Virus record (IMG/VR): IMGVR_UViG_3300045988_159421
Source of the DNA: a virus
Strand: one strand, 5' to 3'
DNA length: 64,000 bases
The notes under the pieces were generated by a model. The model saw only the letters and a list, made by a program, of their open reading frames with translations. It did no database searches and was not told the origin of the DNA. The number at the start of each line of letters is the position of its first letter. The first letter of the stretch is position 1. The translations under genes and the position numbers were made by a program. Shown here piece by piece: positions 3,781-53,507 of this stretch.

Positions 3781-4740
3781 CTAACGACTTTCAGATTGAG
3801 TAGGTTTTGCATCTTTTATATTAGCATATACCCCCTCTTTTTTGCTTTCTAATACCCATAAATCATGGTATCTTCTGTAGTCCATAGCCCATGCATTTGC
3901 ACTTTGGTTAGTTTCAGGGTCAAATATTCTCATGATATCTTGTTTAGTTACTGCTAAAGGTAAATCTAAAGGCATGATTAAAAAGTTAACATCTAATCCA
4001 GAAGTTGCTTTAATGTATCCGCCAGTAGTTTGACCACTAGTCGAACCATCATATAATTGTATTGCACTGTATAATCTATTTTGTGGAACTGGTATAATTG
4101 GGCATCCATCAATAGCTGGAACTTTAGTGTTTATTCCACCTTGAGAAAAAGATACAGATGCTAATTTACCTAATGCAGCTTCTTCTATAGCTAGTTGTGT
4201 ATCATAGTTACACATAATAACTAGTGTTCCATTATGACATTTTTCTCTTAATGTTTTTATACCTTTTTTAATTTTAGCTATAACAGTTGAATTTGCTACA
4301 GTATATCCATATTCTACATTTTCATCATTAGCTACACCCATAGCAGTTGTTGCTAATTTACTTAATCTATAAGCATCTACTTCAGGTATAACTTTAGTTC
4401 TTTGAAATTCACCCATGATTGTTGTTGCTGTTAATACAAAGTTAGTTTCATCAACATCTTGAGAATCTATTTGGAATTTACGTCCTCTATCTTGTGTCAT
4501 TGTGTAAGTTTTGTATTCGTATTTGATAGATCCTTTAGTATATCCGCTATCAGCTTGTCTGTCATAGTTAGCAAGTCCGTCCATTGATAATTGAGGTATT
4601 TTAACTTCTTTACCACCTTTATATTTAACTTGACCTGCATTGGCATCCATCCAGCCTGTCAATGATTCATGTACCATTTGTTTGTCTAATGCATTTTGTA
4701 AAATTTGAGCATATGATATTGTGTTAGCCATGCTAAACAC
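3781..4740 (-). CDS. major capsid protein
   Basis: 319 aa, directly downstream of a coiled-coil scaffold-like ORF and upstream of the neck genes. Confidence 0.65.
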   Translation of the reverse strand: MFSMANTISYAQILQNALDKQMVHESLTGWMDANAGQVKYKGGKEVKIPQLSMDGLANYDRQADSGYTKGSIKYEYKTYTMTQDRGRKFQIDSQDVDETNFVLTATTIMGEFQRTKVIPEVDAYRLSKLATTAMGVANDENVEYGYTVANSTVIAKIKKGIKTLREKCHNGTLVIMCNYDTQLAIEEAALGKLASVSFSQGGINTKVPAIDGCPIIPVPQNRLYSAIQLYDGSTSGQTTGGYIKATSGLDVNFLIMPLDLPLAVTKQDIMRIFDPETNQSANAWAMDYRRYHDLWVLESKKEGVYANIKDAKPTQSESR

Positions 4741-4758: not shown

Positions 4759-5445
4759 TTATGACAAGCCTAAAATTTGATTTACTTGAGCTTGAACAGG
4801 ATCAACAGAATCTCCATTTCCACCACCGCTAGGATTAAACGGATTATTTGTCATATCAGTTTTAAGGACTTCTTGTCCGTATTCACTAAATGCATTAGCT
4901 AATTTATCTATATTCTGTTTACTGATATCCATATCTTCACCAACTACAAACTCTAAGAAATTTTCGACTTGTTTTGGATATTTCATTTCTGCTAGATAAG
5001 TACGACTTTCTTTGATTCTACCTTCATGAGCTAACTTAGCTTCATTCTCTGCATTTTTCTTTTCTGTTGCAGCATTTTTTTCTTCCATCTCTTTAAGTCT
5101 TGTTTCCATAGCTTCCATTTGTTCTCTTTGAGCCTTTTGTTCAGGAGTTTCGTGTTTTGGAGCAGTTGCCTTTTTTATTTCACTTTCTATAATTCCTGGC
5201 ATCTTTTTAGTTTTAAAACTTTCAACTCCTTTAGATACTGCACTGTCTAATTGAGATTGGTTATATCCTTGTATTGCTTTATTTGTTTCAAGAATATTTT
5301 TATAATCTTCAACAGTTAATTTATTTACATCAAAAGGTATTTCTTTAACTTCTGCTATTCCATCAATCCCTTTTAAAATTTCAGTAACATCGGCAGTTTC
5401 ATCTATATCGTTTAATTTTTCTAACAAATCTTTTTTGATTATCAT
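4759..5445 (-). CDS. capsid scaffolding protein
   Basis: 228 aa, charged with a helical/coiled-coil middle (EQKAQREQMEAMETRLKEMEEKNAATEKKNAENEAK). Immediately precedes the capsid gene. Confidence 0.6.
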   Translation of the reverse strand: MIIKKDLLEKLNDIDETADVTEILKGIDGIAEVKEIPFDVNKLTVEDYKNILETNKAIQGYNQSQLDSAVSKGVESFKTKKMPGIIESEIKKATAPKHETPEQKAQREQMEAMETRLKEMEEKNAATEKKNAENEAKLAHEGRIKESRTYLAEMKYPKQVENFLEFVVGEDMDISKQNIDKLANAFSEYGQEVLKTDMTNNPFNPSGGGNGDSVDPVQAQVNQILGLS

Positions 5446-5552
5446 TGTTTACCTCTTTCCCCATGAAGTACTAGCCCTCATAGTATTTAAATAAGAATTT
5501 AGTCCCTCGGAGTACTAGCCCCCAAAGTACTTAGTTTACCCTCGTTTCGGAG

Positions 5553-5578
5553 CATAAAAATAAGCCCTCTCGGGCTTT
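5553..5578 (-). terminator. intrinsic terminator after ORF 5581..5934
   Basis: Minus-strand AAGCCC-GAGA-GGGCTT hairpin followed by ATTTTTAT. Confidence 0.6.
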
Positions 5579-5580
5579 TA

Positions 5581-5934
5581 TTATCTTGTTAATTTATATA
5601 TTTCAGTCAATATTGTATCTGTGATATATTGACTATGCACATAAGATTTGTGATTATACTCATTTATCTTATCGTTGTATAATTGAGCTAACTCAAACCA
5701 ATCTGCATTTTTACACTTTGCTTTGTTGAATATACTGGCTGCTACTTGGCTTTTTGCTTTATCCTTAGTGAAACTTTTATATATGAAAGTATAATAATTT
5801 TCATCATCTTCAGATAAATAATAAGTAGTACCATTTAATTTTAGTTTCTTTAAAGGTTTCTGTTTTGGTCTTTTTATTACTTTAACTTCTATAGCATCAC
5901 AAGGTAATGATACAAAATCAAATAATTTTTTCAT
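5581..5934 (-). CDS. hypothetical phage protein
   Basis: 117-aa ORF followed by a terminator. No recognisable motif. Confidence 0.45.
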   Translation of the reverse strand: MKKLFDFVSLPCDAIEVKVIKRPKQKPLKKLKLNGTTYYLSEDDENYYTFIYKSFTKDKAKSQVAASIFNKAKCKNADWFELAQLYNDKINEYNHKSYVHSQYITDTILTEIYKLTR

Positions 5935-6194
5935 TTAATCATTCTTTATGTAATTTCTATTTATTTCCAAAGATATAAACTATCAAGGGACTTTTTACAA
6001 GTACCTTAGAATTGATTTTAGAAGGTTGAATTATGTAAACCTATCTTCTATTTCTTTTCCATTTAGTCTTTTTACTTATTCCTTGCATTCTTCTTACATA
6101 ATTGCTAAAACTTTCTGACATCCAATCAAACGGAATCATGTAATTCACCTCCCCTGCTTTAGATAGTCCTAATAATTGTTTTATATCAAACATA

Positions 6195-6461
6195 CTATTC
6201 CTTCTTTCTTTCTATCAATTCTGCTCTTTTTATATTCAATCTTACTACATAAACAATACTAAGTATTGATAGAACAATACTTGCTATCCAGTCTATAGCA
6301 TTTGATAGATGTATATGAAGTATTGCTAATACTATTGAAAATATTGTGTATGCTAGAGCGTATACTCCTACAAAGGCATATATGCCTAAAAGGAAATCAT
6401 AATCTTCTTTTCCATACTTATTTTTGCTCAACTTTGTAATTCTCCCATTTCTTATAAGCAT
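6195..6461 (-). CDS. small membrane protein
   Basis: 88 aa with two hydrophobic helices (LLGIYAFVGVYALAYTIFSIVLAIL and IASIVLSILSIVYVV). Confidence 0.4.
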   Translation of the reverse strand: MLIRNGRITKLSKNKYGKEDYDFLLGIYAFVGVYALAYTIFSIVLAILHIHLSNAIDWIASIVLSILSIVYVVRLNIKRAELIERKKE

Positions 6462-6684
6462 CTATGTACATTTCTTTTTTATCTCCATTGTATGTACATT
6501 CATAATACATTCCGTCAAATAAAGTTGTACTTAATAATGCTTTGTTATTTTGTAAAACTTTAGCACACCAAACCATAAACACGTCATCTTTTGTTATTTG
6601 CTTGTTATCTGATTTATCTAAATGATTATTCGTATATTTTACAACTTCATCTTTACACCAATCTAAAAATTGTTGTTCGTTCAT
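6418..6684 (-). CDS. hypothetical phage protein
   Basis: 88-aa ORF, co-directional with neighbours. Confidence 0.4.
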   Translation of the reverse strand: MNEQQFLDWCKDEVVKYTNNHLDKSDNKQITKDDVFMVWCAKVLQNNKALLSTTLFDGMYYECTYNGDKKEMYIDAYKKWENYKVEQK

Positions 6685-6848
6685 AAATTTCTCCTTTTAT
6701 CTCTTTTTAGGTATTTCTTATAATATCTTTTGTAATAAGGTGAGTTTTCACCATATGTTGCTAAATTAAATAAGATGTTTGGACTTATAACCCAGCCCAT
6801 TCTTACTCCTATTTTAAGTAATAAATCTTTCATGTTGCTCCTTCAATT

Positions 6849-7106
6849 CTATAGCTTAACTATTTTCCCATCTTTTAATGTATATCCTGTTTTACCTGAA
6901 TTTCTAAAATCATATATTTTATAAGCTTCTATGTAAACTTCGTCACATATACCAAGTTTAACAGCTAAATCTTTTATAACTAATGCATGGTCTGTACAAT
7001 AAGCAGCCATATCTTTGTCATTTTGTTTATAATAAAATTTATCTGCTTTCTTTTGTGTTTTAGCCATTTCTTGAGCAAATATATTTATAACTTCTTGTCT
7101 ATCCAT
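6849..7106 (-). CDS. hypothetical phage protein
   Basis: 85-aa ORF, co-directional with neighbours. Confidence 0.4.
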   Translation of the reverse strand: MDRQEVINIFAQEMAKTQKKADKFYYKQNDKDMAAYCTDHALVIKDLAVKLGICDEVYIEAYKIYDFRNSGKTGYTLKDGKIVKL

Positions 7107-7115
7107 ATTATCCTC

Positions 7116-7430
7116 CTAACAACCTATTATATTTATTCCGTATGCTTTTGCTATTTCATATTCTATTTTACATCCTCTTGCTTTATCCCAACCTTCTCCG
7201 AGATATATCATATCTGCTTGAGATAATAGTTGTATTGATTTACCTAAGTACCAAACTGGTATATGTTTATTAATTTCTCCAGGATAATCTTGTAAAAACG
7301 AATCTATAAATTCTATTTCTTCGTTTATTTTGGTTTCTATATCTTTTTTTATTTCACTTCTTTTTTCTAATATTTCTTCATCGGTTAATCCTCTCATTGG
7401 TTGAGATATAAATACTTTTTTCATTAACAT
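7116..7430 (-). CDS. DUF4406 / nucleoside 2-deoxyribosyltransferase-like protein
   Basis: N-terminus KKVFISQPMRGLTDEEI and C-terminal GWDKARGCKIEYEIAKAYGI resemble that fold family. Recognised from memory only. Confidence 0.35.
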   Translation of the reverse strand: MLMKKVFISQPMRGLTDEEILEKRSEIKKDIETKINEEIEFIDSFLQDYPGEINKHIPVWYLGKSIQLLSQADMIYLGEGWDKARGCKIEYEIAKAYGINIIGC

Positions 7431-7437
7431 TCTCCTA

Positions 7438-8193
7438 TCATCTTATAACTATAAAGTAACATTTACAGAAGTTGTGCTGTGGTATTAAATCATAAGCTTC
7501 TTCAGCAGTTAAAATAGTACCATGCATACTTTCACAATCACTGCATGTTCTTTCTTCTAAAACTGAACAATACATAAATTTTTTATCTTTATTACAATAA
7601 ATAAAAATATCATTTGCTATTCTACTAAGCTCAGATATCAATATTCCTCTTGCTCTTTTTCTACTCATCTTTTGTCTTTGTGTTAGCCATGATGCAATAT
7701 TGTATAAATTCTTCTTGTTATAAGCTATTTTCAATCTTTTTTTAGTTCGATTATTTATTTTAGCCATATTGCTTTGTATTCTTTGCTTATACGTTTTACC
7801 TTCGTATTTTCTATTTAATATTTTCTGCTTTTCTTCATTGTCTACAAAATATCCAAAATACTCTACAATTTCTTCAAACATTTCATCAAAGAAGTTATCT
7901 ATTAAATCTTCAAGCCATTCATCTTCGTTATTAAGCATTGATAGAACTGATATAACAAGAAATCTTTCAGCGCTTTCGTAATCTTTTGATGTTTTTTCTA
8001 TTTGATAAGCAAAATTAGCAGTTTCCATTAACTCTCTAATCTGCTTATCTGTTTTATTCATCTTTTTAAGATATTTTTCAAGTTCCTGTTCGGCCTGATT
8101 ATATGCTTTTTCCATGAAACTTTTAGTTTCTTCAGCATTTCTATTCTTCGATGTTTGTTTCTGTGTGTTGGTGTTTATCGCCATACAATTCAC
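7438..8193 (-). CDS. head morphogenesis protein (SPP1 gp7 / Mu F-like)
   Basis: Directly downstream of the portal gene. C-terminal Cys/His-rich CSDCESMHG...PQHNFCKCY is typical of this family. The true start is probably internal, since the 5' end overlaps the portal ORF. Confidence 0.6.
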   Translation of the reverse strand: MNCMAINTNTQKQTSKNRNAEETKSFMEKAYNQAEQELEKYLKKMNKTDKQIRELMETANFAYQIEKTSKDYESAERFLVISVLSMLNNEDEWLEDLIDNFFDEMFEEIVEYFGYFVDNEEKQKILNRKYEGKTYKQRIQSNMAKINNRTKKRLKIAYNKKNLYNIASWLTQRQKMSRKRARGILISELSRIANDIFIYCNKDKKFMYCSVLEERTCSDCESMHGTILTAEEAYDLIPQHNFCKCYFIVIR

Positions 8194-9553
8194 CTAAACT
8201 TTCATCTTCCCTCTTCATTTCTTCTTCATATTCTCTTGCAATTTGTCTTTGTTCAGCATCTAAATCTACTATAAATCCAAATCTACTTGATGCTGTTCTC
8301 TTAGAAATAACTCCAGGAGGAACTTGACTAAGCATTTGAGCTGTAGCTAAATCATCTTGAGGAATATTTGCAGTATAAATAATTTTTATTTTTTTCCAAT
8401 CAAAATTCTTTGCTTTAAAGTAATTTATATAATTACACCAAAATTTCAATCTATTTGTAACTATATTTGAGTGAGCATTTATTTGAAGGGCACATTTATT
8501 TTCCAGTGCTATTAATCTACTTCTAAGTGTAATTCCGCTTAAATTTGATTGTAATCTTTCGTTATGATTTATATGACAACTTATTTGATACATATCGTCT
8601 TTATATCTATCCAGTGTATTTTGCACAAAAGTATCGTTAATTTGCTTAATTAACCATTGAATTTTACCTTCTTTACCTACCATTAAGATGCCTTTTTTCT
8701 TCATTTCTAAAATTGGATCTATTTTCGTTTCTTCTCCAGTTTCTTCATCAACAACTATTTTTTCTTCTTCAAATTCACAATCTGTCATAACCATATATGC
8801 GTTTCTAAAGTCTGAAATTTCATTTCCTAAGTCAGATAAATTAGTTTCATAAGCATCTTGTAATCCCTTTAAGTCTTTATATAAACTATCTTCTGTCAAT
8901 TCTTCAGTTAATTTTCCTACAGAAACAGGTATTATACCAAATCTATGGTTTGTTGGAGGTTCAACTTGGTTAAACTCTCTGTCTAAATGATAAATACATT
9001 TTTTTGTATAAACATCTATATGATAAACATCTACATCTAAATGTTCTACTTTCACATCCATATAAAATAAAATATTATCATATTCATCTTGATATGCATA
9101 TCCTGTTAAAGGAGTCGAAATAATGCTTTTAAATCCTTCTTCATCATATCGATAAATTTCAAACACTTTTGTAAATATAACCATGTATTTCATTAAGTCA
9201 CTGTCATGATTTTTATTCCATAAAGCCATAGTTGATGTTAATTCATCCAATAAACCTGGTTGTTCTTTACTTTCATAAGTAATAGGATTTCCTACAGTAT
9301 AAGAGACCTCTTCCTTTACAAATTTTTTGAAAAAATTTGTATTTACTTTTAAATTCGACCTTTGTGTAATTGTTTTGTAGTCGGCCATAGCATCTGTATT
9401 GCCTTTATAATAGTCATACATTTTTTGATATTTATGTAAATCAGACTCGAAACATTGATACATATATCTGACAAAATTTAAATGATCAGGGATATTCAAA
9501 TCTAAAGTCATTCCTTTTTTTAGACCATCTACGATTTCTGCTATAGTCTGCAT
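8141..9553 (-). CDS. portal protein
   Basis: 470 aa, located between the terminase and head-morphogenesis genes, with an acidic C-terminus. Confidence 0.65.
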   Translation of the reverse strand: MQTIAEIVDGLKKGMTLDLNIPDHLNFVRYMYQCFESDLHKYQKMYDYYKGNTDAMADYKTITQRSNLKVNTNFFKKFVKEEVSYTVGNPITYESKEQPGLLDELTSTMALWNKNHDSDLMKYMVIFTKVFEIYRYDEEGFKSIISTPLTGYAYQDEYDNILFYMDVKVEHLDVDVYHIDVYTKKCIYHLDREFNQVEPPTNHRFGIIPVSVGKLTEELTEDSLYKDLKGLQDAYETNLSDLGNEISDFRNAYMVMTDCEFEEEKIVVDEETGEETKIDPILEMKKKGILMVGKEGKIQWLIKQINDTFVQNTLDRYKDDMYQISCHINHNERLQSNLSGITLRSRLIALENKCALQINAHSNIVTNRLKFWCNYINYFKAKNFDWKKIKIIYTANIPQDDLATAQMLSQVPPGVISKRTASSRFGFIVDLDAEQRQIAREYEEEMKREDESLGELYGDKHQHTETNIEE

Positions 9554-9990: not shown

Positions 9991-11100
9991 TTACACACCC
10001 AATCTCCTTCTATCCATGAACCTAATTATATTTTTTGTTTTTATTTTTAGTATTTTATTTGCAAAATCAGAAACAACATCTGCAGCATCATCATGTAGTG
10101 TATATGCTGTTCCTTGAAAGTCTAATATCTGTTCTGTAAATGCTTTATTATTATCTGCAAATATTATTTGGCCATTATTAACTGGATCTTGTATAGTTGC
10201 AATACGATTATCTTTATTTTTATTATTCATATCATTAATAAATATTAAATTTCTTTTCTTTAGTTCAGGTATCTTTTCAATCATTTGTTGTATAGTAGTT
10301 ACATCTGAACCTAAGTAGGTATTTCTTTCTATAGATATATGAGTTATATCTGTAAATTCTAATAAAATATCAATAATTGTATTACAATACTCTGTGAAAC
10401 TCATTTTTTCAAGTACCATTCTTCTGATATATTTAAAGTCATTTTCTCCTAATGAACCTACTATCATTGCAAATGAGTCAGTTTTCTTTTTCTTATTAGA
10501 AGAATTATCTCCCGCTGGGTCAACACAAAGCATTGTTTTTAAAAAAATATGGTCCTCTATTTCCTCTACTGATTGAGTTCTTATAGATTTAAACCATTTT
10601 TCACCTATACTACTAGCATCATTCATTTTTTCTGACATAAATGATTTTCTATTACTCCAGTATTTAACTGCTATATCTATAAAAAAATCCCATTTTTCTT
10701 CCCATAAAACAGGATATTTCATTTCTTCTTTATGTTTTTCATAAAATTTTCTAGCTTGTATTTGAGGATCTTCTATTTTATCGTCAAAATAAATCTTTTT
10801 ACATTTAATCCATAAATCACTTTCAAATATATCATCTATTGTTTGGCCATCTTCTAATAAAACAGCTCTATTCATAATAGTATGATAATCTCTATTTCTG
10901 CTAAGTTTACTTATTAAGCAATCAATATGTAAAACAGTTCCTATACTTACAAACTTAGTTGCTGATTTAACTTTTTTACCTTTTCTAAATACTGCAGTAT
11001 CTCCAACTTCCTCTACTTCTTTACACCATCTATTCCATTTCTTTTCTCTAGCATCTTCAGTTATAACATCAACTTCGGATTGATAATCCATTTTGTTATC
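9991..11100 (-). CDS. terL: terminase large subunit, exon 2 (nuclease half)
   Basis: The reading frame is open from GAT at 11100-11098, just after an in-frame TAG at 11103-11101. The 366-aa track ORF is C-terminal TerL-like, with acidic residues such as VDPAGD and DDAADV. Confidence 0.65.
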   Translation of the reverse strand, partial: DNKMDYQSEVDVITEDAREKKWNRWCKEVEEVGDTAVFRKGKKVKSATKFVSIGTVLHIDCLISKLSRNRDYHTIMNRAVLLEDGQTIDDIFESDLWIKCKKIYFDDKIEDPQIQARKFYEKHKEEMKYPVLWEEKWDFFIDIAVKYWSNRKSFMSEKMNDASSIGEKWFKSIRTQSVEEIEDHIFLKTMLCVDPAGDNSSNKKKKTDSFAMIVGSLGENDFKYIRRMVLEKMSFTEYCNTIIDILLEFTDITHISIERNTYLGSDVTTIQQMIEKIPELKKRNLIFINDMNNKNKDNRIATIQDPVNNGQIIFADNNKAFTEQILDFQGTAYTLHDDAADVVSDFANKILKIKTKNIIRFMDRRRLGV

Positions 11101-12231
11101 CTAGTGGCTTTTTATCCTCTAGTTCTATATGTTTCCATATAGCTCGGCATACATTTTCACCCTCGTTTAACGTTAGGTTCTCAGATTACTCTATAAATAA
11201 TCGTGTCGGTGGCTCGTGGGCATATTATATTCTATACTTTTACATAATAATAAAAGCATAGGTTCAATGCCTATGCTCTGCGTGTGTTATCAGCTTTTAA
11301 ACTGTAACTTCCCCTAGTATTACCTTGTTTAATATATTGATATATGTAAAGTTTTTATCATCTGTAAAAAATGGAATTTCTATATATTTAATATTATTTT
11401 TTTTACAAAATTCAATTTTAATAGCATCATGTTTTTTAGTAGTTATTAATTTTTTCTCTGCTTCTTCTTCAGTACATCCTCCAAAATAAGCTTTTTCGTA
11501 ATGTTGTCTACCATTAACTTCAATAACCATTTTTAGTGATGGTATGTAGAAATCAAAAGGCAGAGGTCTTTTATTTTTGCAATTATCAAATTTATACTCT
11601 CTAATATATTCAATATTATTTTCAATAAGGTATTTTTCAACCTTTTGTGATAGTCTAGAATTTTGTTTATTATATTCGTTACATTGAGGACAACATCTTC
11701 TTTTTTCTAGATTAGTCCAAAATACTTTCTGTAAACCATGGTAAGGACATTCAAATTCAACTATAGTACTTCTTGTTCCTTTTTTTGTATATCTTCTTAT
11801 ATACTTACAGCCTATTTCTTCAACTATTTTAATTACTTCTTCTAATGGTTTCTTAGCAATCCCTTTAGTTATATATTGAGAAGGTACTCCTTTTACCTCT
11901 ACAGTATTAGAACATGATTTACATAAATGAAATTTATCCCTTTTAAAAGAATCCCAAGTTCTTTCAAATTCTTTACCACATTTACATTTAAATTTTAATT
12001 TTGTTTTAGCATTTTTATATTCAGTTGATAACAAAATACATTCAGAATTGTTTTCAACCCATTCTTTTACATATTCAAAAGTTAATCTCTTCATAACAAT
12101 CACCTCTTAATTATATTATATCATAATCAGATTGAAAGTTATATCATTATCAATATTAAATTTAGGCTTCTACATTAATTCCACCGATTCTATAAGTTAT
12201 ATTTCTATAACCTACGGACAATTATATTTTT
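11101..12231 (-). mobile_element. probable group I intron interrupting terL, carrying a homing-endonuclease ORF
   Basis: It separates two TerL halves in the same orientation. Proposed exon 1 ends ...GCGGAT (a U before the 5' splice site). The insert ends ...CTAG (a terminal G). Joining gives in-frame VVIAD-DNKMDYQ. The flanking non-ORF parts are G+C-enriched and hairpin-rich. Exact boundaries are inferred. Confidence 0.5.
11297..12094 (-). CDS. intron-encoded homing endonuclease (Zn-ribbon N-terminus plus PD-(D/E)XK/Vsr-like C-terminus)
   Basis: RBS AAGAGGTG precedes ATG 12094. Repeated CxxC pairs are present (CKCG, CKSC, CPYH, CPQC). The C-terminal PFDFYIPSLKMVIEVNGRQH resembles the DUF559/EDxHD-type nuclease core. 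Confidence 0.5.
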   Translation of the reverse strand: MKRLTFEYVKEWVENNSECILLSTEYKNAKTKLKFKCKCGKEFERTWDSFKRDKFHLCKSCSNTVEVKGVPSQYITKGIAKKPLEEVIKIVEEIGCKYIRRYTKKGTRSTIVEFECPYHGLQKVFWTNLEKRRCCPQCNEYNKQNSRLSQKVEKYLIENNIEYIREYKFDNCKNKRPLPFDFYIPSLKMVIEVNGRQHYEKAYFGGCTEEEAEKKLITTKKHDAIKIEFCKKNNIKYIEIPFFTDDKNFTYINILNKVILGEVTV

Positions 12232-12885
12232 ATCCGCTATAACAACAGTAGGCCTTACACCTCCCCAGTTAGCACCACGAACAGAAGTGGTTGACCCTAC
12301 TGCCCTTATATATGTGTCATTAGTAAACTCAATTTCACCTGAGTTAACCTTGTAATAATCTTTCGAATTAGGCTTTTTACCTTTTAAATCTATTAAGTTT
12401 CCAAATACATCTTTTATAAGCTCATTTTCTAAAAACTCTTTCTTTATAGAATTTAAGAATTGCTCGGCATCATCTGCAGTTTTGGCTCCTAATAGAGTAA
12501 ACTTTGATTTTTTATAGCAATGTAACCATATTGCAAGTGTTTTATCGCATATGGTTGACTTAGCAAGTCCTCGAGGCTCTACTATATTAAGTTTGTCGTA
12601 TAAATCCTGTACAAAGGCCTCTGAAAGAACTCTCCATATCTTATAATGTTCCTCACATAATTCCCTTGCACTGTTGTCATCACTTGGTACGAAAGTCGTT
12701 CTAAGAAAATATAAACTAAAAAATGTTATATCCTTTTCTCCGATTACCTTTGCAACCTCGTTAGGAGTGTATTTCCTTCTAATATTATCCTGATTTTTAG
12801 GAAAATATTTCTTTAGATATTTATCAATCAAATATAAAGAGTATTTATTATCATTAGGAAACTCTATATCATCAAAATAAATCAT
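12232..12885 (-). CDS. terL: terminase large subunit, exon 1 (ATPase half)
   Basis: Walker-A-like EPRGLAKST and Walker-B-like RPTVVIAD. The track ORF continues for only 8 more codons (KNIIVRRL) into the proposed intron before a stop. Confidence 0.65.
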
Positions 12886-13109: not shown

Positions 13110-13132
13110 AGATATTCCCCTTTATTTATTAA

Positions 13133-13218
13133 TGGCGGAAAGGATAGGATTTGAACCTATGCACCTTACGGTCTAGAAGTTTAGCAAACTCCCCTCTTAA
13201 CCACTTGAGTACCTTTTC
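13133..13218 (-). tRNA. tRNA-Ser (anticodon GCU), long variable arm, encoded CCA
   Basis: Hand-folded cloverleaf. Anticodon stem GGAGT/ACTTC with loop TTGCTAA. T-arm ATAGG-TTCAAAT-CCTAT. One A:C mismatch in the acceptor stem. Confidence 0.75.
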
Positions 13219-13226
13219 TTATAAAA

Positions 13227-13303
13227 TGGTAGTAATAGTTGGACTTGAACCAACGACCTTGCGCTTATCAGACGCACGTTCTAACCATCTGAACTATATT
13301 ACT
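13227..13303 (-). tRNA. tRNA-Ile (anticodon GAU), encoded CCA
   Basis: Acceptor AGTAATA/TATTACT. Anticodon stem TGCGT/GCGCA with loop CTGATAA. T-arm GTTGG-TTCAAGT-CCAAC. 77 nt. Confidence 0.85.
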
Positions 13304-13312
13304 ATAATGTTT

Positions 13313-13390
13313 TGGCTGGCCTAGTGAGATTCGAACTCACAACAAACCATGGTCCGTAGCCATGTGCTCTATCCGTTGAGCTATAAGCCA
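13313..13390 (-). tRNA. tRNA-Arg (anticodon ACG), encoded CCA
   Basis: Acceptor TGGCTTA/TAGGCCA. Anticodon stem CATGG/CCATG with loop CTACGGA. T-arm GTGAG-TTCGAAT-CTCAC. Confidence 0.8.
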
Positions 13391-13399
13391 ATATTCTAT

Positions 13400-14262
13400 T
13401 TAGAAGGCTCGAGATTAAAGCCTTCTGTAGACACCTTTCGCAGCATTATTTATTCTCTGCTTATCCACGTACCTAATACGTATTGTCCATGACTGGTTGT
13501 ATTTTTATAGTGCCACAAAACCCTAACACGAGGCACTCTACTATAGTACTACTCAACACTTCGTATTCTGTCTGCCTTGCGAGCAACAAAGGTTTGCAAA
13601 ACCACCATGCAACTTCATGTTAAACGATTCACCCTTGGGAGGTGTCACGCACTAGATTATATCATGCAAGGATATTCTAGTATTAAGCCACTTTCATACT
13701 ATAAGGGAACAGACTTTTCCTTTTATTGTTTTGTTATCATAGACAATTTATCATCCAAAATTAATATTCTCTATGCCTGTATAAATCTGAATTAAATTTG
13801 ACAGACGTTGTGCTGTTCCTGAAGATTCGTTTCCTTTTGAGACACGAAATACTTCACAACATCAGTGTGTTTCATTGAATTCTTACTCCACGTTGTTAAT
13901 ACATACTCCAGCCCTTTCACTGTTTCACTATTAACAATGGTTAGTGCCCTTTGTTATCAGCATCGGACTATATAACCTCCTGATTATGTCTCGCTACATG
14001 ACCAATTTGGCGTGAGGTAAATTATTCAGTGCCACCTGAAAATCTTCGATATACGGTTCGCCTTTTCGAAAACTGTCCCTCTTGGGTTACGTAGTTATCT
14101 CCACTACTATCAATTCATGAAGACGTTGGACATTCAGTTCTGCTTAGATGGACTAGTTTAACTAGCGACATGTAGTCAGCATGCCTTTACACTGCTCACA
14201 CAATGCTATCCTAAAGATACTAAGCTACCTAAAATAGATTTAGATTTATTTTTTAAAACACA
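13400..14262 (-). ncRNA. candidate giant structured ncRNA (GOLLD/ROOL-class) between tRNA genes
   Basis: About 860 nt with no credible ORF, visibly more G+C-rich than surrounding DNA, and many local hairpins (for example AGAAGGCT/AGCCTTCT at 13402-13426). Flanked by co-oriented tRNAs and downstream of a box promoter. Strand is inferred from context. Confidence 0.5.
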
Positions 14263-14266
14263 TACA

Positions 14267-14340
14267 TGGCTGGGCGTAATAGATTCGAACTATTATTCCA
14301 GGAATCAAAATCCTGTGTCCTACCTTTGAACGAACACCCA
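14267..14340 (-). tRNA. tRNA-Gln (anticodon UUG), encoded CCA
   Basis: Acceptor TGGGTGT/ACGCCCA. Anticodon stem CAGGA/TCCTG with loop TTTTGAT. T-arm AATAG-TTCGAAT-CTATT. Confidence 0.8.
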
Positions 14341-14359
14341 ATATTTAACTGATAATTAT

Positions 14360-14403
14360 ATTCTAATCTCCCAACAATACTTTTTCAATCGGAACATATT
14401 CCT
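14360..14403 (-). promoter_or_regulatory. box-A promoter: 17-nt conserved box fused to -35 TTGAAA, 17-nt spacer, -10 TAGAAT
   Basis: Minus strand AGGAATATGTTCCGATTGAAA-N17-TAGAAT, about 20 nt upstream of tRNA-Gln. The box is identical to four other copies. Confidence 0.6.
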
Positions 14404-14405
14404 AA

Positions 14406-14430
14406 TAAAAAAAGCCAGATTTCTCTGACT
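14406..14430 (-). terminator. intrinsic terminator after the recombinase gene
   Basis: Minus-strand hairpin AGTCAGA-GAAA-TCTGGCT followed by TTTTTTT. Confidence 0.6.
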
Positions 14431-14453
14431 TTTAAAATGTATTATTTATTTTC

Positions 14454-15035
14454 TTATTGATATTCTTTCATTCTTCTAATTAGTGTAGCTTTGCTTATTC
14501 CTGTTACTTCTGTAACTTGCTTATAACTCATGCCACTTTGCTTTAGATCAATGGCATGCTTAATTTGTTTGTTTGAATACTTTTGCGGTCTACCTTCTGT
14601 AAAATCTTCTCTTTGTTTTGCTATCGCCTTACCTTCTTTTGTTCTTTCAACTATCATATCTCTTTCAAATTCAGCAAATGCAAGGAAAATAGTTCTTGTT
14701 AATTTTCCATTAGGTGTATTATCCATTAATCCTAAGTTTACTATATGAACTTTTATATCTTGTTCTAGTAACTTATCTATTATGCTTAATCCGTGTATTG
14801 TACTTCTAGCAAATCTGTCTAATTTAGTTACTACTAATGTGTCTCCTGGTTTTAATTGTTTAAGAAGTTTATCGAAATTTTTTCTATCTTCTTGTTTCTT
14901 TGTTCCAGTAAAAGAATCAACTACGATATTTTCTTTTAAACATCCATTTGCTAATAGTATTTCTGTTTGGCCTTCTAATGAGTTACCATCTTTCTTTTGT
15001 GAATAAGTACTAACTCTTGCATATCCGTATTTCAT
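14454..15035 (-). CDS. small serine recombinase (resolvase/invertase family)
   Basis: N-terminal [13 protein letters not shown] catalytic-serine motif, 193 aa, C-terminal HTH ([22 protein letters not shown]). Confidence 0.85.
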
Positions 15036-15135: not shown

Positions 15136-16401
15136 TTAAATATACGCAAATGTATATCCATAAGTTGTTTTTTGTTTTCCTTGTAACACTTTTTCTATGC
15201 TTTTTCTTGGAATATCAAGTTTTCTTGCACAAACTCCTATTCCTTCAATAATTTCTTCTGAATTATCTTTTAAATTTGTTGCTTTAATAGTTTTCTTAGG
15301 AGTAACTTTTTTACTATATTTAGCTTTTATTGCTAATATAGAAGTATAATCCTTACTTTCTATATATGGAATTAACTGTTGTTTTACATTTATAGCATCT
15401 TCTTCTGTTTTAAAATGACCTATTGGTATCTGATTTCCATTAAAGGTTATTCTTAAAAACCAGCTTTTAGCTTTAACATCATAATTAATGCCTTTTACAT
15501 CAGATTTATACATAGTAGTATTTTTCTTGTTTCGCATATTATGTAAAAAAGAATAATCTATTTTCTGTCTTTCACGCATTTTTTCATATGTTTTTCTGCA
15601 ACAATCCATATATTTTTCCATTTCAATATGTGTTGTTATTCCTATTTGTTTACCTTTTAAAAACTTTTCTTTATTTCGCAAATCATTAACTTCTTTAAAA
15701 ATCAAAGAAAAATCTTTAACATTGCTTTTTTTTAAAATTCTTTTAATTGTATCTTGAGAAAGTTTATATTTTTCACTAATTTCATTAAGTAAGTATTTTT
15801 TAGAATATAAATCTTTAACTATATTTTCATTTCTAGTTTCTTTATTATTTATAATTTTAAGTTTTTCATTTAAATCAGATCTAACATCTACCCATGAATT
15901 AAGATATTTAACATTATAAATAACTTTTTCTCTTACTCCAGTTAATCTAGCTATTTTCTTTATAGAGATTGGATTATTTTCTAGTTCCGATAACATTTCT
16001 TTAACTTTAGCAATTTGATGTTCTGTATAATCACTTCTTTCTCTAGTTACCTTCTTTAAATTTTCTAATCTTTTCTTTCGTATTTCCTCTGGAATCTCAT
16101 TTAAAAAATAATCTCCACCTTCTGTCATATTAAATCCATTATTATAAGTATCATATTTTTTTATATAATACTTTTCTAAATCATTTAAAATGTCAAGTTC
16201 ATCACAATAATGTATAGCTTTAAACTTAAAAGCACCTTCTCCATATTTATTCCAACTTCTTTGAAGATATTCATTGTCATGATTTCCTCTGTTCAAAGCA
16301 CTTATATGACTTTTCCATCTTTTTTCAAAATCTTGAATTGTTTGCCCTATATACATATCGCCTGTTACTACATTTGTTATTGAGTAAATTCCAAAAGGCA
16401 T
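15136..16401 (-). CDS. free-standing GIY-YIG homing endonuclease with an AP2-like DNA-binding C-terminus
   Basis: N-terminus GIYSITNVVTGDMYIGQT (GIY...YIG), followed by R..H and N motifs. Repeated HTH-like modules. C-terminal GINYDVKAKSWFLRITFNGNQIPIGHFKTEEDA is AP2-like. Confidence 0.8.
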   Translation of the reverse strand: MPFGIYSITNVVTGDMYIGQTIQDFEKRWKSHISALNRGNHDNEYLQRSWNKYGEGAFKFKAIHYCDELDILNDLEKYYIKKYDTYNNGFNMTEGGDYFLNEIPEEIRKKRLENLKKVTRERSDYTEHQIAKVKEMLSELENNPISIKKIARLTGVREKVIYNVKYLNSWVDVRSDLNEKLKIINNKETRNENIVKDLYSKKYLLNEISEKYKLSQDTIKRILKKSNVKDFSLIFKEVNDLRNKEKFLKGKQIGITTHIEMEKYMDCCRKTYEKMRERQKIDYSFLHNMRNKKNTTMYKSDVKGINYDVKAKSWFLRITFNGNQIPIGHFKTEEDAINVKQQLIPYIESKDYTSILAIKAKYSKKVTPKKTIKATNLKDNSEEIIEGIGVCARKLDIPRKSIEKVLQGKQKTTYGYTFAYI

Positions 16402-16940: not shown

Positions 16941-17408
16941 CTACGATATTTCACTATCTTTTATATCTATTACATTCCCTTCTATAACATCTGAATCATT
17001 AAAGTCATCCCAAGAAGGTTCATTATTATTTTCTTTTTCAGTTTCAGGAGTAATAACTGTTTTAGTTTCCACTTTTGAAATTGGAGCGCCAGCCAATCTA
17101 TTAAGTAAGTATATGCTTGCATCTAGTCTAACCTTCTCGCTCTTAGCTGATCTTGATAGGTCGAGAATATTTTGTAAAAGTTGATTAGAGAATTTCATTA
17201 TACGATTGTCAACTTTATTTTTAGCAACTTCATATTGTCTATCAAGTTCTTCCATGAATTCTGGTCTTTTCTTCCAGCGCATTATAGTTTTTTCACAAAC
17301 ATCTAATTGGTCTGCTACTTCTTTATTAGTTGCACCATACACTAATAATTCTGCTGCAATTAATTGGTCTTCTGTTAACCTAGAATCTTTTTCTCGTGGC
17401 ATAATCAA
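16941..17408 (-). CDS. HTH protein, possible terminase small subunit
   Basis: N-terminal HTH (TNKEVADQLDVCEKTIMRWKKR), 155 aa, acidic tail. It is the first gene of the packaging-side block, but is separated from terL by about 4 kb of insertions. Confidence 0.35.
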   Translation of the reverse strand: MIMPREKDSRLTEDQLIAAELLVYGATNKEVADQLDVCEKTIMRWKKRPEFMEELDRQYEVAKNKVDNRIMKFSNQLLQNILDLSRSAKSEKVRLDASIYLLNRLAGAPISKVETKTVITPETEKENNNEPSWDDFNDSDVIEGNVIDIKDSEIS

Positions 17409-29677: not shown

Positions 29678-30985
29678 CTATAATATAAGTTTAAAATCAT
29701 CTAAATCAACTTCAAAGCCTTCTAGTTCAATACTTCTAGGTTTATCAATTAAATCAGGTGTCATAAAGAATGAAGTCATTTTCATATCCTTAGTAAATTT
29801 AGGTCTTTTAGTAGCATTTGTACCATATAATACTTTAGCTCTTAGTACTTCATAACTATAACCTTTGCCAGCCTTTTCAACACTTTTAATAACGTTATTT
29901 ATAGACTCTGTATAAGCGTTTGTATAAGGCTGTAAGAAATAATTGAATATTTCATGCTTATTATTGTTGTAAGTTCTTTGAAGGTCTTTAAAAGCTTTAA
30001 AATCATCTGGTATTCTACATTCCCATTCATAGTATCTTTGAAACGCTTCATATCTATCTTCTGATGTATAAATATCTCTTATTGTTTCTTTTAACCAATA
30101 TGCTACACCAAGCTCTGGGAACTCCTCAAACCAAGTATCTCTAAGTATTATGTCTTTTTCTTTTAGGTCTTCTTTATTTTTTAATAATACCCATCTGTCA
30201 TTTGTTAAAATTCGTTTCCTATCATTAGGCAAATTAGATTTAACTTGTTTTCTAACAGTATCTAAAGCTCTTTGAGCATATTGGATAACGTGAAATTTAT
30301 CAACTACTACAGTAGCACTAGGTATTAATTCTCTACAAGCATATCTATAACCACTCCACATATCTATTGTAACTACTTCTATATCCTTATAACCTTCCAT
30401 GCTCTGAATTGTATTTTTAACAGTTTTTTTAAGATTGTCTTCGGTTATTTCAAGTAATTTATTATTTTCTGTGTCTGTGAATACACCTCTCATTTTCTTA
30501 TTTAAATGAGCCTCATCTATTCCTAATACTCTAGGTGCTTTTATAATTCTATCTGCATCTAATCTAGCTATTTCTTCTTTAAAATATTTTCTTACTGAAG
30601 TATGAGATAGTCCACAATCATATCCTACTTCTAAAAATGGCTTCCTAAGGCTTTGTTGTTGAATATATTGCTTTAGTCTAAGAGTAACTTTATCATTTCT
30701 CTCAATACTGTAGAAAGGCTGATAAAAGGTTTTACCACAACAAGGACATTTATATCTGATATGTTTTAAAACTAATATAACTGGTTTTCCATGAATAGGT
30801 ATATCTTGAATTTCTCTTTCCTTACTACTATGTATCGTAAAATTCCTTGTATCTCCCATAACAGGTGCTTCATCCCATAAACATTGGGTACATACTATTG
30901 GTCTTTCTTTTGCTACGATTGTAAACTTATAATAATATTCATTTTCTTCTTTTTTAATTACTTCAAATTCTGGTAAATTTAACAT
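29678..30985 (-). CDS. ISL3-family transposase
   Basis: 435 aa. N-terminal Zn-finger (CTQC...CPCCGK), central DDE region (GIDEAH...VVTIDMW...DKFHV). Paralogous to ORF 48825..50138. Confidence 0.75.
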   Translation of the reverse strand: MLNLPEFEVIKKEENEYYYKFTIVAKERPIVCTQCLWDEAPVMGDTRNFTIHSSKEREIQDIPIHGKPVILVLKHIRYKCPCCGKTFYQPFYSIERNDKVTLRLKQYIQQQSLRKPFLEVGYDCGLSHTSVRKYFKEEIARLDADRIIKAPRVLGIDEAHLNKKMRGVFTDTENNKLLEITEDNLKKTVKNTIQSMEGYKDIEVVTIDMWSGYRYACRELIPSATVVVDKFHVIQYAQRALDTVRKQVKSNLPNDRKRILTNDRWVLLKNKEDLKEKDIILRDTWFEEFPELGVAYWLKETIRDIYTSEDRYEAFQRYYEWECRIPDDFKAFKDLQRTYNNNKHEIFNYFLQPYTNAYTESINNVIKSVEKAGKGYSYEVLRAKVLYGTNATKRPKFTKDMKMTSFFMTPDLIDKPRSIELEGFEVDLDDFKLIL

Positions 30986-39166: not shown

Positions 39167-39225
39167 TACTCGTCACTCTCCTAACTTTTTAGTGTTTAAT
39201 TATGTTTAATTATAGACAAATGTGT

Positions 39226-40473
39226 TTATATCACACTATCTAACCAATAAATTTTATTATATTTCCAAAGTAATCTACATTTTCTTACATTTACTTTTTT
39301 GCAATGTTTTGTAGGACTTTGAAAATTTAATGCGTTCAAATGTGGATATAATGCTGTAACATATCCTTTATGAGTTTCTCCATTTCTGTAAGTATATTCA
39401 ACCAAATCTCTATGTTTAATTCCTAATACATTATCTGTTTTTGCTTTTGATTTTCTACGCATCGGTTTAATCATCCATTCTTTTATATTGCAAGTATCTG
39501 GAAAACAATTTGTTATACAAATAGCATCGTTTGAATGAGATTTTTCTATATTCCATTCAATTCTTTTATTTGCAGTATCTCCACCTGTTGTAAGATGTAA
39601 TATTCCTAATTGTTTAATATTTTCTCTAAGATAATTTTTACCTTGCATGACATGCATTGCATAATCAAATCTTTTTGGCTTACTTTTTATTTTGGTGAAA
39701 TATCTCTCTTCAAATTCTCGTTCTTTCCCTTCTGTCTTTTGATGACAAGAAGAACAAAGAGTAATGAGATTCCCAATAGTATTTGCTCCACCAAATCTCT
39801 TTGCTCGAATATGATGAACCTCAAGTACAGTATTTGTTTTTCCACATTCTTGACATTTACAACTATCTCTTAATATTGTCGCTTTTCTAAGATTTTCATC
39901 TAATCTATTATTCTTCTGATATTGCCAATTATAAGGTTTATATCCATCGGTCATTGCTCTTATATCTATTGCTACATCTTCAAGATAATATTCTTTAATA
40001 TTTATCCATTTATTTAATTGATATAAAACTCTAAGAATAGAATCTTTCTTTTGTTTAATACTTGGCGCTAATCTATTAGTTTTTTTTGAAGATGCTCTAT
40101 TATTGAATCTAGGTTTACGATATCTTTTATGATATCTACGGTATTGTCTATATCCTCTACGAACATCCATTAAGTGTTTTACATCTTGTCTTTGTTCAAT
40201 AGTTCCTTTAAATACAACTTTATTTTTACTTGGACATTTTTGAACAATTGCTATTCCAACATGAGAACTACCATCGTCAATTCCACAAACCATATGACTT
40301 TCATCTTCGTCATCAGGTTCAACTTCTTTTTCTAACTGAATTACCATAGGATATTTACTTTTTAATTTTGCTCGACCTTTTCTAATCAAATACCAACCTT
40401 TATTTACTTTAGTTGGAGCTAAAGGTCTATTGTTTTTATCTACAACAAAACAATATTCAATTTTATTTTCCAT
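39226..40473 (-). CDS. iscB: IscB (OMEGA-class RNA-guided RuvC/HNH nuclease)
   Basis: PLMP-like N-terminus ([23 protein letters not shown]). Ruv[15 protein letters not shown]. Arg-rich bridge helix [25 protein letters not shown] insert CQECGK...LEVHHI...[10 protein letters not shown]. RuvC-III HSNDAI. 415 aa. Confidence 0.75.
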
Positions 40474-40775
40474 CTCTGGACACCTTCCTTTCGGAGAATT
40501 TTTCGTCTTGGGAATGTCAAGTAGAGGATATGTGTTTCCCTGTTATCAATACAGGACATTAGCATTGTTTCTTGGTTAGCACTCACAGAGTTTCAGACTG
40601 ACGATTACATCTAAAAGTGTGTGTTTACCTTACTACTCAACATAGTTCATATCTGCAATATATGTTTCCATAAAAGCAGTCACTAACCCTTGAAACCTCT
40701 TGTTAAGCCATATACAAAAGACTAATGTGTCCACTTTTCTATATGTTTGACTATATATTTCTATGTATATAGTCA
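40474..40775 (-). ncRNA. candidate omega-RNA (HEARO-type) upstream of iscB
   Basis: About 300-nt ORF-free, comparatively G+C-rich leader directly 5' of iscB. A perfect 9-bp hairpin GACTATATA/TATATAGTC sits at its distal end (40749-40774). Exact extent is inferred. Confidence 0.5.
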
Positions 40776-41015
40776 CTTAACAATTAGTCCTGTTGCTAGT
40801 AACAATATGCGTTTAACTTTTTCTTTCCTTTGTTCTTCTGTTAGATAGTTATTTTTCTTAGTCAATCTATCTTGTTTATGTCTCTTAGCTTTTTCAAAAT
40901 TAACCTTTCCTCTAACTGAAGATAATGTTCGCCCTAAATATTTTGCTATTTCTTCATCTGATATTAATTTATAATTTTCTTCTAAAAACTTTTCTTCTTC
41001 TATGCTCCATTTCAT
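40773..41015 (-). CDS. small SANT/Myb-like protein
   Basis: WSIEEEKFLEENYKLISDEEIAKYLGRTLSSVRGK. Confidence 0.4.
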   Translation of the reverse strand: MKWSIEEEKFLEENYKLISDEEIAKYLGRTLSSVRGKVNFEKAKRHKQDRLTKKNNYLTEEQRKEKVKRILLLATGLIVK

Positions 41016-44633: not shown

Positions 44634-45317
44634 TTAAACCCCCTTAGTTATTCTCATATTCGGTACATTTTTAAACTCGATTATATTTTCTCTACACATT
44701 TCTATGATTCTACTAGTTATAGCAGCATCATAATTCATCAATTCATCTAGTGATTTTTCTGTACTTACTATAATCGGTTTTTCTGTCATGTAACGATAAT
44801 TTATTATTTCATAGATATACTTTCTATCAGCTTCGCTTGTTTGACCTTTGAGTAAATCATCAACGAATAGCACAGTGCAATTCTTATACTGGTCTATTTC
44901 TTTGTTGTAATTAATTGGATCCATACAACATTGTTTTAGTTTCATAATTAAGCTAACATATTCAGCATATCTACATCCTACATTTTGATTTACGAGTTGC
45001 ATCATCATTGCAATTCCTAAATGGGTTTTTCCCGTTCCTGGTTTTCCAGTTAATAAGAAACTACCCTTTTCCTCTTTAAACTTCTTACAGTAGCTCATGG
45101 CTCGTAATTTTGCCTGTTTCTGATGCTCTGTATCTGTTTTGAAGTTTAAAAAAGTTTTCTTTTTAAAAGAATCCGTTAGGCCACATCTTTCTAACTTTTC
45201 TTTTATGTGTCTTTTCTTGATACATTCACAAGGAACGGCTTGAGTATAGCCTTCTTTATCTTCTTGTAAAGTGTACCCTAAATCTCTACACTTCTCACAT
45301 TGATATTCTATAGCCAT
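44634..45317 (-). CDS. DnaC/IstB-like helicase loader ATPase
   Basis: Walker A GKPGTGKTHL, Walker B VLFVDDL, N-terminal Zn-ribbon CEKC...CEC. Confidence 0.75.
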   Translation of the reverse strand: MAIEYQCEKCRDLGYTLQEDKEGYTQAVPCECIKKRHIKEKLERCGLTDSFKKKTFLNFKTDTEHQKQAKLRAMSYCKKFKEEKGSFLLTGKPGTGKTHLGIAMMMQLVNQNVGCRYAEYVSLIMKLKQCCMDPINYNKEIDQYKNCTVLFVDDLLKGQTSEADRKYIYEIINYRYMTEKPIIVSTEKSLDELMNYDAAITSRIIEMCRENIIEFKNVPNMRITKGV

Positions 45318-53314: not shown

Positions 53315-53507
53315 ATCTATTTCCCTCCTATGTTGAATTTTATCGATTTGTAGCAATTTTTATCTATCTTAAAGAATTGAAAATATAATAAATGCATGAT
53401 ATAATATAAATACAATATTGATATATGTGATACAAGATAGACCTACTTTGCTACAGTTTCTGTACAATTTGATTGTTGGCGCGATCAAAAAGTAGGTTTT
53501 TTTATGT

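Follow-up and report, generated by a model that had tools for sequence, protein, structure and literature searches.

The stretch of DNA analysed here at its full length of 64,000 nucleotides (nt; IMG/VR virus record IMGVR_UViG_3300045988_159421, hereafter the window) is the genome of an uncultured tailed gut phage that carries a tRNA cassette between its terS and terL genes. It is practically certain that the 876 nt on the minus strand between the tRNA-Gln and tRNA-Arg genes of this cassette (13391-14266) represent a full-length GOLLD RNA. This family was reportedly first described in 2009 by Weinberg et al. from lake metagenomes and a prophage of Lactobacillus brevis (cited in PMC6582537). 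The original prediction, which was made from the sequence alone, had proposed a giant non-coding RNA of the GOLLD or ROOL class in a phage tRNA cluster, and its description of size, strand and tRNA context agrees with our results.

A gathering-threshold scan of the whole window with Rfam, the check that had been named in the original prediction, places the GOLLD model RF02032 at 13406-13864 on the minus strand with 187.1 bits (E 4.2e-51), well above the curated gathering score of 150 bits. The match spans positions 1-416 of the 416 model positions without truncation and was repeated in a scan of the region. All 16 related loci that were put through Rfam are likewise GOLLDs above threshold (169-199 bits). 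The RNA of the window shares with the RF02032 family the two-domain layout, the length of about 860 nt, the lack of coding capacity, the phage-borne and tRNA-flanked location, and the variable linker downstream of hairpin P14, with which the 3' domain begins, and no family-defining feature deviates. It is an ordinary GOLLD member by every criterion tested and not a new class; the earlier suggestion of an equally possible new large RNA finds no support.

The phage- and tRNA-adjacent context would suit ROOL just as well, which is also a large structured RNA of phages and prophages beside tRNAs and forms RNA-only cages, and an RRXRR+HNH mobile element is present elsewhere in the window. However, that the interval encodes another known large RNA in place of GOLLD (ROOL, OLE, HEARO/omega RNA, a group I or II intron) is hardly conceivable in view of the Rfam results. 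ROOL differs from the RNA described here in sequence and fold. A permissive scan of 13380-14280 (E <= 10) returned, besides GOLLD, two chance-level matches (Atu_L1, a small RNA of Rhizobiales; SCARNA7, a eukaryotic small Cajal body-specific RNA) and no ROOL, OLE, HEARO, intron or tRNA remnant. In the whole window, GOLLD and four tRNAs are the sole matches at gathering threshold, and ROOL is not among them. A ROOL, intron or other large-RNA identity of 13391-14266 is ruled out by both scans.

The interval contains 10-25 stop codons in every frame, which rules out a coding or decayed-gene reading; its longest listed open reading frame (ORF) comprises 72 amino acids (aa) with a TTG start (13577-13795, plus strand), so that the absence of a credible ORF was correctly recognized. 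The same applies to its conspicuous richness in G+C, which amounts to 37.3% compared with a mean of 28.1% for the window (standard deviation 2.8%, 876-nt windows) and 25.6-28.4% in the flanks, and ranks the region within the top 8 of 1263 sliding windows. A missing Rfam match, missing covariation and a decayed coding gene had been listed as outcomes that would speak against the original prediction, and all three are contradicted by the data.

RF02032 appears to represent the 3' domain of GOLLD, and the stretch 13865-14266 is left as a candidate 5' domain. A scan of IMG/VR with a conserved motif of the 3' domain provided 119 loci. Among them, nhmmer matched the 3' half of the window RNA to 41 loci and the 5' half to 24, in each of which it immediately precedes the 3' domain; a profile hidden Markov model (HMM) of the 5' half added one locus and a covariance model five more. 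The 5' domain is thus homologous to upstream regions in at least 30 other GOLLD loci. An alignment of twenty sequences from five clades exhibits the invariant blocks GAUAG, a GUGA tetraloop, UAAAG, AAUCAGGAGG, CCAUU and AGUGAA. The first ~36 nt of the RNA are A/U-rich, and their conservation is confined to the close relatives that form the clade of the window.

The structural conservation of the 5' domain is documented by covariation. RNAalifold predicts 68 pairs in 13 helices, 40 of which are kept through double changes. In a controlled pair count, 97.7% of the cells are paired compared with 35-42% after sliding the 3' partners by 1-3 columns, the number of doubly changed pairs is 41 compared with 1-8, and the observed pairing score was reached in none of 500 shuffles. 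Among the close relatives of the phage lineage, 18 pairs vary, of which 16 are still paired in every copy, and switches from GC to AU are found at 14104/14094 and 13935/13895. ACTAGTT/AACTAGT (14152-14166), one of the local helices named in the original prediction, corresponds to helix 5 with double changes at four of its six pairs. A covariance model of the core junction scores 104 bits in the window and recognizes this core in 12 further GOLLD loci; five G+C-rich loci that had been overlooked by the sequence search were recovered with it. With the added lineages, the junction is paired in 95.7% of cells compared with 27-40% after sliding, and 16 of its 24 pairs are doubly changed among 11 distinct sequences. 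The loop GCUUAG (14225-14220) of the hairpin 14230-14215 forms a pseudoknot with CUAAGC (14147-14142), and the stem of this hairpin covaries between clades (AGGUA/UAUCU, GGUUG/CAACC and GGAG/CUCC, as read by eye).

These data also bear on the question of whether only the 3' half is a working GOLLD and the 400 nt after tRNA-Gln are an unrelated spacer or a decayed gene. The Rfam model is limited to 13406-13864, GOLLD 5' halves have been described as variable (PMC12286853), and the 5' half of the window RNA does not align with the solved GOLLD env-38 introduced below. Nevertheless, this explanation is very improbable given a 5' half without an open frame that is retained at a fixed place in so many GOLLD loci and whose 13 helices covary. 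The reading of 13865-14266 as mere spacer is contradicted by its conservation and covariation. Together with the Rfam match of the 3' half, the covariation of the 5' half indicates that the whole 876-nt interval is a two-domain GOLLD RNA. Its 402-nt 5' domain agrees with the length of about 300-450 nt that is usual for this domain in GOLLDs of about 700-850 nt.

According to the Infernal alignment, all helices of RF02032 are formed in the 3' domain of the window; non-canonical pairs are few, and the posterior probability is high. Its plan comprises the P14 hairpin, the linker, the long-range helix P15 around multi-stem junctions and a terminal hairpin with a conserved loop. The helix at 13402-13426 that had been named in the original prediction is exactly this terminal hairpin, and GTGCC/GGCAC (13510-13536), likewise named there, is a 3'-domain hairpin of variable length with the compensatory version GUGUC/GACAC in the relative L013. 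Sister copies exhibit further compensatory changes, for example from GCAG/CUGC to ACGG/CCGU. Hairpins of both the P21a and the P21b type are present, with the self-complementary loop sequences UUGCA (containing UGCA) and CGCAA. The P21 loops were read from the Infernal alignment, as the MAFFT alignment of the 3' domain is ragged around P20-P21 and unfit for loop covariation.

No other part of the RNA varies as much as the linker J13/15; its variable portion (about 13725-13798) has a G+C content of 23.5%, and an 80-nt A/U-rich version is common to the window and four relatives. In the window copy, it contains no tRNA, tRNA remnant or other family (Rfam, E <= 10). Five other loci (L063, L068, L127, L132 and L133) hold a tRNA at the position equivalent to about 13725-13798. 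The embedded tRNAs share one backbone (GGGAAAUAGCUCA...UUUUCUCAAC) and differ in the anticodon arm, which reads GAU (Ile), GUU (Asn) or consists of 8-nt loops that ARAGORN interprets as the 4-base anticodons GGUU and GGUA. G-U pairs and a mismatch weaken the acceptor stems of these tRNAs; decaying pseudo-tRNAs and unusual decoders are both conceivable. Linker-embedded tRNAs are already known for the GOLLD family (PMC12286853, PMC12990946, PMC6582537).

Cage formation and an inward-facing linker have been reported for GOLLD (PMC12286853, PMC12990946). The marine metagenomic env-38 GOLLD of 833 nt forms a 14-mer cage in cryogenic electron microscopy (cryo-EM; PDB 9MEE; PMC12286853). The 700-nt GOLLD of Streptococcus agalactiae forms a 12-mer and its 3' domain alone mainly 10-mers (PDB 9L0R, 9LMF; summarised in PMC12990946), and according to this review from 2026 the oligomer number is set by the 5' domain. 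Our comparison with env-38 was based on a query of 815 of its 833 nt from the supplement of the paper, with few bases lost. It aligns end to end with L029, L009, L046, L015 and others, which demonstrates that our collection also includes GOLLDs of the env-38 type. The RNA of the window shares with env-38 a homologous 3' domain (same Rfam model), an upstream tRNA, the place of the linker and two self-complementary P21-type hairpins, but the cap-forming 5' domain of env-38, which represents the published canonical P1-P13 plan, shows no detectable relation to that of the window. Two weak junction-model matches of 9.5 bits coincide precisely with the 5' starts of L003 and L055, and a distant common plan of both types of 5' domains is possible on the basis of these sequences. 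Because the 5' domain of the window belongs to a different class from that of env-38, the subunit number of any cage is unpredictable. The Firmicute-associated S. agalactiae GOLLD shows that cages form despite differing 5' domains, albeit with other subunit numbers; by description, it is without P21b and several 5' helices, and differs in this from the RNA of the window, in which P21-type hairpins of both kinds are found and the 5' domain is longer. By analogy, it is likely that the window GOLLD forms an RNA-only cage, and its P21-type loops would fit symmetric kissing contacts of the kind known from env-38.

Another point of comparison is provided by the GOLLDs of mycobacterial tRNA arrays (PMC6582537), with which the RNA of the window has in common the horizontally mobile tRNA cluster, an HNH endonuclease nearby and, in its sister phages, a linker able to hold a tRNA. 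The mycobacterial GOLLDs embed tRNA-Phe or a pseudo-tRNA (PMC6582537; Morgado et al. 2020, cited in PMC12990946). By contrast, the linker of the window copy is free of tRNAs, and the small array of four tRNA genes resides in a phage packaging region and not in a chromosomal array of 30 tRNAs.

A combined proposal, which we put forward tentatively, is that the window-type 5' domain represents a cap architecture separate from that of env-38, present in at least 30 of the sampled loci, and that J13/15 is an exchangeable interior cargo slot, empty or tRNA-bearing in near-identical sister phages. If true, the separate cap would define a large GOLLD subclass with another subunit number or geometry of the cage, and the cargo slot would suggest that unusual tRNAs are presented or sequestered by the RNA.

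The location of the cassette was compared in ten contigs with an identical portal protein. In nine of them, GOLLD is found at this location with tRNA-Gln in front and a tRNA behind it. The complete tRNA-GOLLD-tRNA cassette is missing from L130, where only about 214 bp separate the recombinase gene from the small ORF that precedes terL (about 6150-6364, equivalent to 13110-14453 of the window). In L134, a 1.6-kb RRXRR+HNH element (about 5208-6801), which is 76% identical to 39195-40792 (-) of the window, disrupts the 5' domain within the invariant AAUCAGGAGG motif. The absence in L130 and the disruption in L134 indicate that the cassette is dispensable and behaves like an accessory insert.

As originally described, the RNA is bracketed by tRNA-Gln at one end and tRNA-Arg, tRNA-Ile and tRNA-Ser at the other, all co-oriented on the minus strand (ARAGORN and Rfam). 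In the window and seven relatives, tRNAs are located directly at both GOLLD ends with identical spacing, and the downstream set differs among the relatives (Arg only, Arg-Ile-Ser or Asn-Ile-Ser). The promoter claimed for the cluster would be represented by TTGAAA-17 nt-TAGAAT, the top promoter-like match of the region, which is kept in all seven close relatives and has a perfect TATAAT in L063. For the expression as a discrete large RNA with a rise in lytic growth that is expected of GOLLD, this conserved site is the sole hint. No terminator-like site was found between tRNA-Ser and the 57-aa ORF/terL.

The best explanation of the locus as a whole, and in our judgment a highly probable one, is a GOLLD cassette at 13391-14266 (-) with the following proposed steps of processing, cage formation and tRNA-operon expression. 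Host RNA polymerase would probably start at 14388-14360 and produce one precursor with tRNA-Gln, GOLLD, tRNA-Arg, tRNA-Ile and tRNA-Ser. With comparable probability, which draws on the established tRNA-processing pathway, tRNA maturation would liberate GOLLD via an RNase P cut at 13390/13391 and the 3' processing of the CCA-bearing tRNA-Gln, which would trim the RNA near 14266. The RNA would then fold into the 402-nt 5' domain with its 13 helices and the 459-nt 3' domain via the A/U-rich single-stranded linker, an architecture that is documented by the family match and covariation. Somewhat less securely, and in analogy to the cryo-EM structures of env-38 and S. agalactiae, about 10-14 copies would come together as a closed RNA-only cage of dihedral symmetry, in which the linker points to the inside. 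The last step is speculative: the cassette may provide an accessory, non-essential function, with tRNA supply or translation in lytic growth as the foremost candidate, and the linker may be an interior slot, occupied by a tRNA in sister phages but vacant in the window copy. Our confidence in this cage and tRNA-operon model hence falls from near certainty about the identity of the RNA to a tentative view of its function.

Several points weigh against this model or parts of it. The folding energy of the single sequence barely beats that of shuffled versions (z = -1.64; 2 of 20 shuffles fold as well); of the claim that the region is full of local helices, the helices themselves have proven real, but their folding energy is unconvincing alone, and the decisive evidence is therefore the family match together with covariation. 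About 5-9 independent clades underlie the covariation. With the HMM of the window-type 5' domain, the 815-nt env-38 query reaches 0.5 bits and no alignment; the covariance model of the junction gave no significant match to loci of the env-38 type with default filters either, and E >= 1.4 on eight of them when the filters were off; since the 5' domain cannot be aligned with that of env-38, the transfer of cage geometry is an analogy. Promoter-like sites are not enriched here over shuffled sequence, and promoter, precursor and processing sites are all deduced from the sequence. The dispensable cassette would be compatible with a weak or conditional function, and the proposed role in tRNA supply and translation is a tentative hypothesis.

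The tight adjacency of tRNAs on both sides of the RNA in all clades, the tRNAs inside the linker of sister copies and the embedded pseudo-tRNA of a Mycobacterium member without detectable expression (PMC6582537) would also fit an RNA that acts mainly in cis as a processing or "inhibited storage" scaffold of the tRNA operon, without a trans-acting cage function; the storage idea has been raised in PMC12990946. We nevertheless consider this explanation unlikely. The window copy lacks an embedded tRNA and yet its whole 860-nt structure is under purifying selection, some GOLLD loci are devoid of an adjacent tRNA in the stretch examined, and elaborate conserved quaternary contacts have been reported for the family (PMC12286853). 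Still less likely is a cage that serves as a counter-defence or host-takeover device, for instance by sequestering ribosomes or a host nuclease, unlinked to tRNA supply. It would agree with the ribosome binding in pull-downs that is cited in PMC12286853, and with the resemblance of the cassette to an accessory insert flanked by mobile genes for a serine recombinase and a GIY-YIG endonuclease. In sister phages, the module also contains anti-defence genes at other places (Acb2/Tad1-like, Tad2-like, Sequestin), but these genes are not adjacent to the cassette. The preferred model of an accessory cage linked to the tRNA operon is retained.

The identification itself is routine annotation, as one Rfam scan names the RNA. 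The phage lineage represents a natural allelic series around a near-identical RNA, in which the cassette is present, absent (L130) or interrupted (L134) and the linker is empty or holds tRNAs with differing anticodon loops. This series is material suited to functional or competition work, and the abundance of the phage, whose exact portal occurs in more than 400 metagenome assemblies, adds to its relevance. The 5'-domain class of the window is without a solved structure, and in the solved members the 5' domain decides the subunit count of the cage. The coordinates of the cassette, its domains and the neighboring phage genes are compiled in Table 1.

Table 1. Features of the GOLLD cassette, of the surrounding phage genome and of sister contigs (L-numbers); positions refer to the window unless a contig is named.
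Feature	Position	Strand	Basis or remark
GOLLD RNA gene, whole	13391-14266	-	interval from tRNA-Gln to tRNA-Arg, 876 nt; ends predicted from tRNA processing
GOLLD 5' domain, window type	13865-14266	-	402 nt, 13 covarying helices; nhmmer, RNAalifold, pair count
5'-domain core junction	14138-14230	-	helices 2-5, invariant GUGA tetraloop, GAUAG and UAAAG joints; covariance model
GOLLD 3' domain	13406-13864	-	459 nt, universally conserved half (P14-P27); RF02032
First 3'-domain hairpin	13805-13864	-	model 1-60, P14 in published numbering; Rfam alignment; near-invariant in close relatives
Single-stranded linker J13/15	13706-13804	-	99 nt; Rfam alignment, 23-nt insertion
Terminal 3'-domain hairpin	13402-13426	-	conserved loop UUAAUCUCG, arms AGAAGGCT/AGCCTTCT; model about 400-416
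tRNA-Gln(UUG)	14267-14340	-	encoded CCA, directly 5' of GOLLD; ARAGORN; Rfam tRNA 56.2 bits
tRNA-Arg(ACG)	13313-13390	-	15 nt past end of Rfam match; ARAGORN, Rfam
tRNA-Ile(GAU)	13227-13303	-	ARAGORN, Rfam; in only some relatives
tRNA-Ser(GCU)	13133-13218	-	ARAGORN, Rfam
Candidate sigma-70-type promoter	14360-14388	-	TTGAAA-17 nt-TAGAAT; 10/12 matches, best of region; predicted function
Terminator-like hairpin and T-run	14410-14433	-	ends upstream serine-recombinase gene; 10-bp stem, T-rich tail; identical in 7/7 close relatives
Serine recombinase (resolvase/invertase type)	14454-15035	-	directly upstream of cassette
GIY-YIG/NUMOD homing endonuclease	15136-16401	-	between terS and cassette, with recombinase
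TerS	16941-17408
TerL, split	12205-12885 and 9991-11091	-
Portal	8141-9553
Major head protein	3781-4740
Actin-like (ALP_N) partition protein	53969-54892	+
DnaD-like replication initiators, two	52187-53356 and 45308-46255	-
Embedded linker tRNAs of other loci	L063 3092-3167; L068 2671-2747; L127 5737-5812; L132 6880-6955; L133 6976-7051
Anti-defence genes of sister phages	L122/L128/L130 about 6562-6948 or 13562-13948; L134 13817-14332; L120/L126 5884-6129 or 12884-13129

The window also encodes RecT, an SbcC-like protein and an endolysin, whose distant matches are uninformative on the host. The partition and replication genes would be consistent with a plasmid-like maintenance (phage-plasmid), and no integrase turned up among the ORFs scanned in the window; sister contigs encode a ParB_N protein. 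The nearest portals of isolated phages are those of a Clostridium perfringens phage (47% identity) and a Clostridium difficile phage (41%). The clostridial phage-plasmid that had been assumed originally is supported only in part, namely by the tailed-phage genome with its actin-like partition gene, replication initiators and clostridial nearest portals. The lineage of the putative host, as suggested by these portals, is not among the names in the published alignment of 806 GOLLD sequences. In a distant-mode BLAST of the GOLLD region against GenBank phages only the tRNAs were matched, and the comparison with plasmids gave no match; a megablast search of phages with 20 kb of the window as the query was equally negative. 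The lack of BLAST matches beyond the tRNAs indicates that there is no annotated close relative. The named representative genomes contained no match to the clade-specific GOLLD motif or the portal protein.

The vicinity of the cassette shows traces of rearrangement. In several sister phages, a second resolvase-family gene replaces the GIY-YIG gene, and the 5' part of the helix-turn-helix region of the recombinase varies between relatives, which suggests recombination at the site. The terL gene (9991-12885, -) is split by a clean insertion of 1143 bp (11089-12231) with an HNH endonuclease ORF (11297-12103), which provides the stop codon of the N-terminal and the start codon of the C-terminal fragment; an uninterrupted TerL of 583 aa is present in L120, L126 and L128. 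No group I or II intron was detected in the insertion (Rfam, E <= 1), and the split resembles the fission of a gene by a homing endonuclease of the free-standing kind; alternatively, the insertion may be an intron that escaped recognition.

In sister phages, genes of anti-defence families (Acb2/Tad1 hairpin, Tad2-like and Sequestin; Pfam) are located in the variable region downstream of the portal gene, whose equivalent in the window would be about 5500-8100. The mobile element at 39195-40792 (-) comprises a gene for a 415-aa RRXRR+HNH protein and about 320 nt of upstream non-coding DNA; HEARO is absent from the window at the Rfam gathering threshold, and the Pfam pair RRXRR+HNH is presumably typical of IscB-like nucleases. 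Two DDE transposase genes of the ISL3 family are found at 29678-30985 (-) and 48825-50138 (+), and a comparison of the ISL3 element with plasmids gave no match. With two ISL3 copies, the RRXRR+HNH element, the HNH insertion in terL and the GIY-YIG gene, the mobile load is unusually high for a 64-kb stretch.

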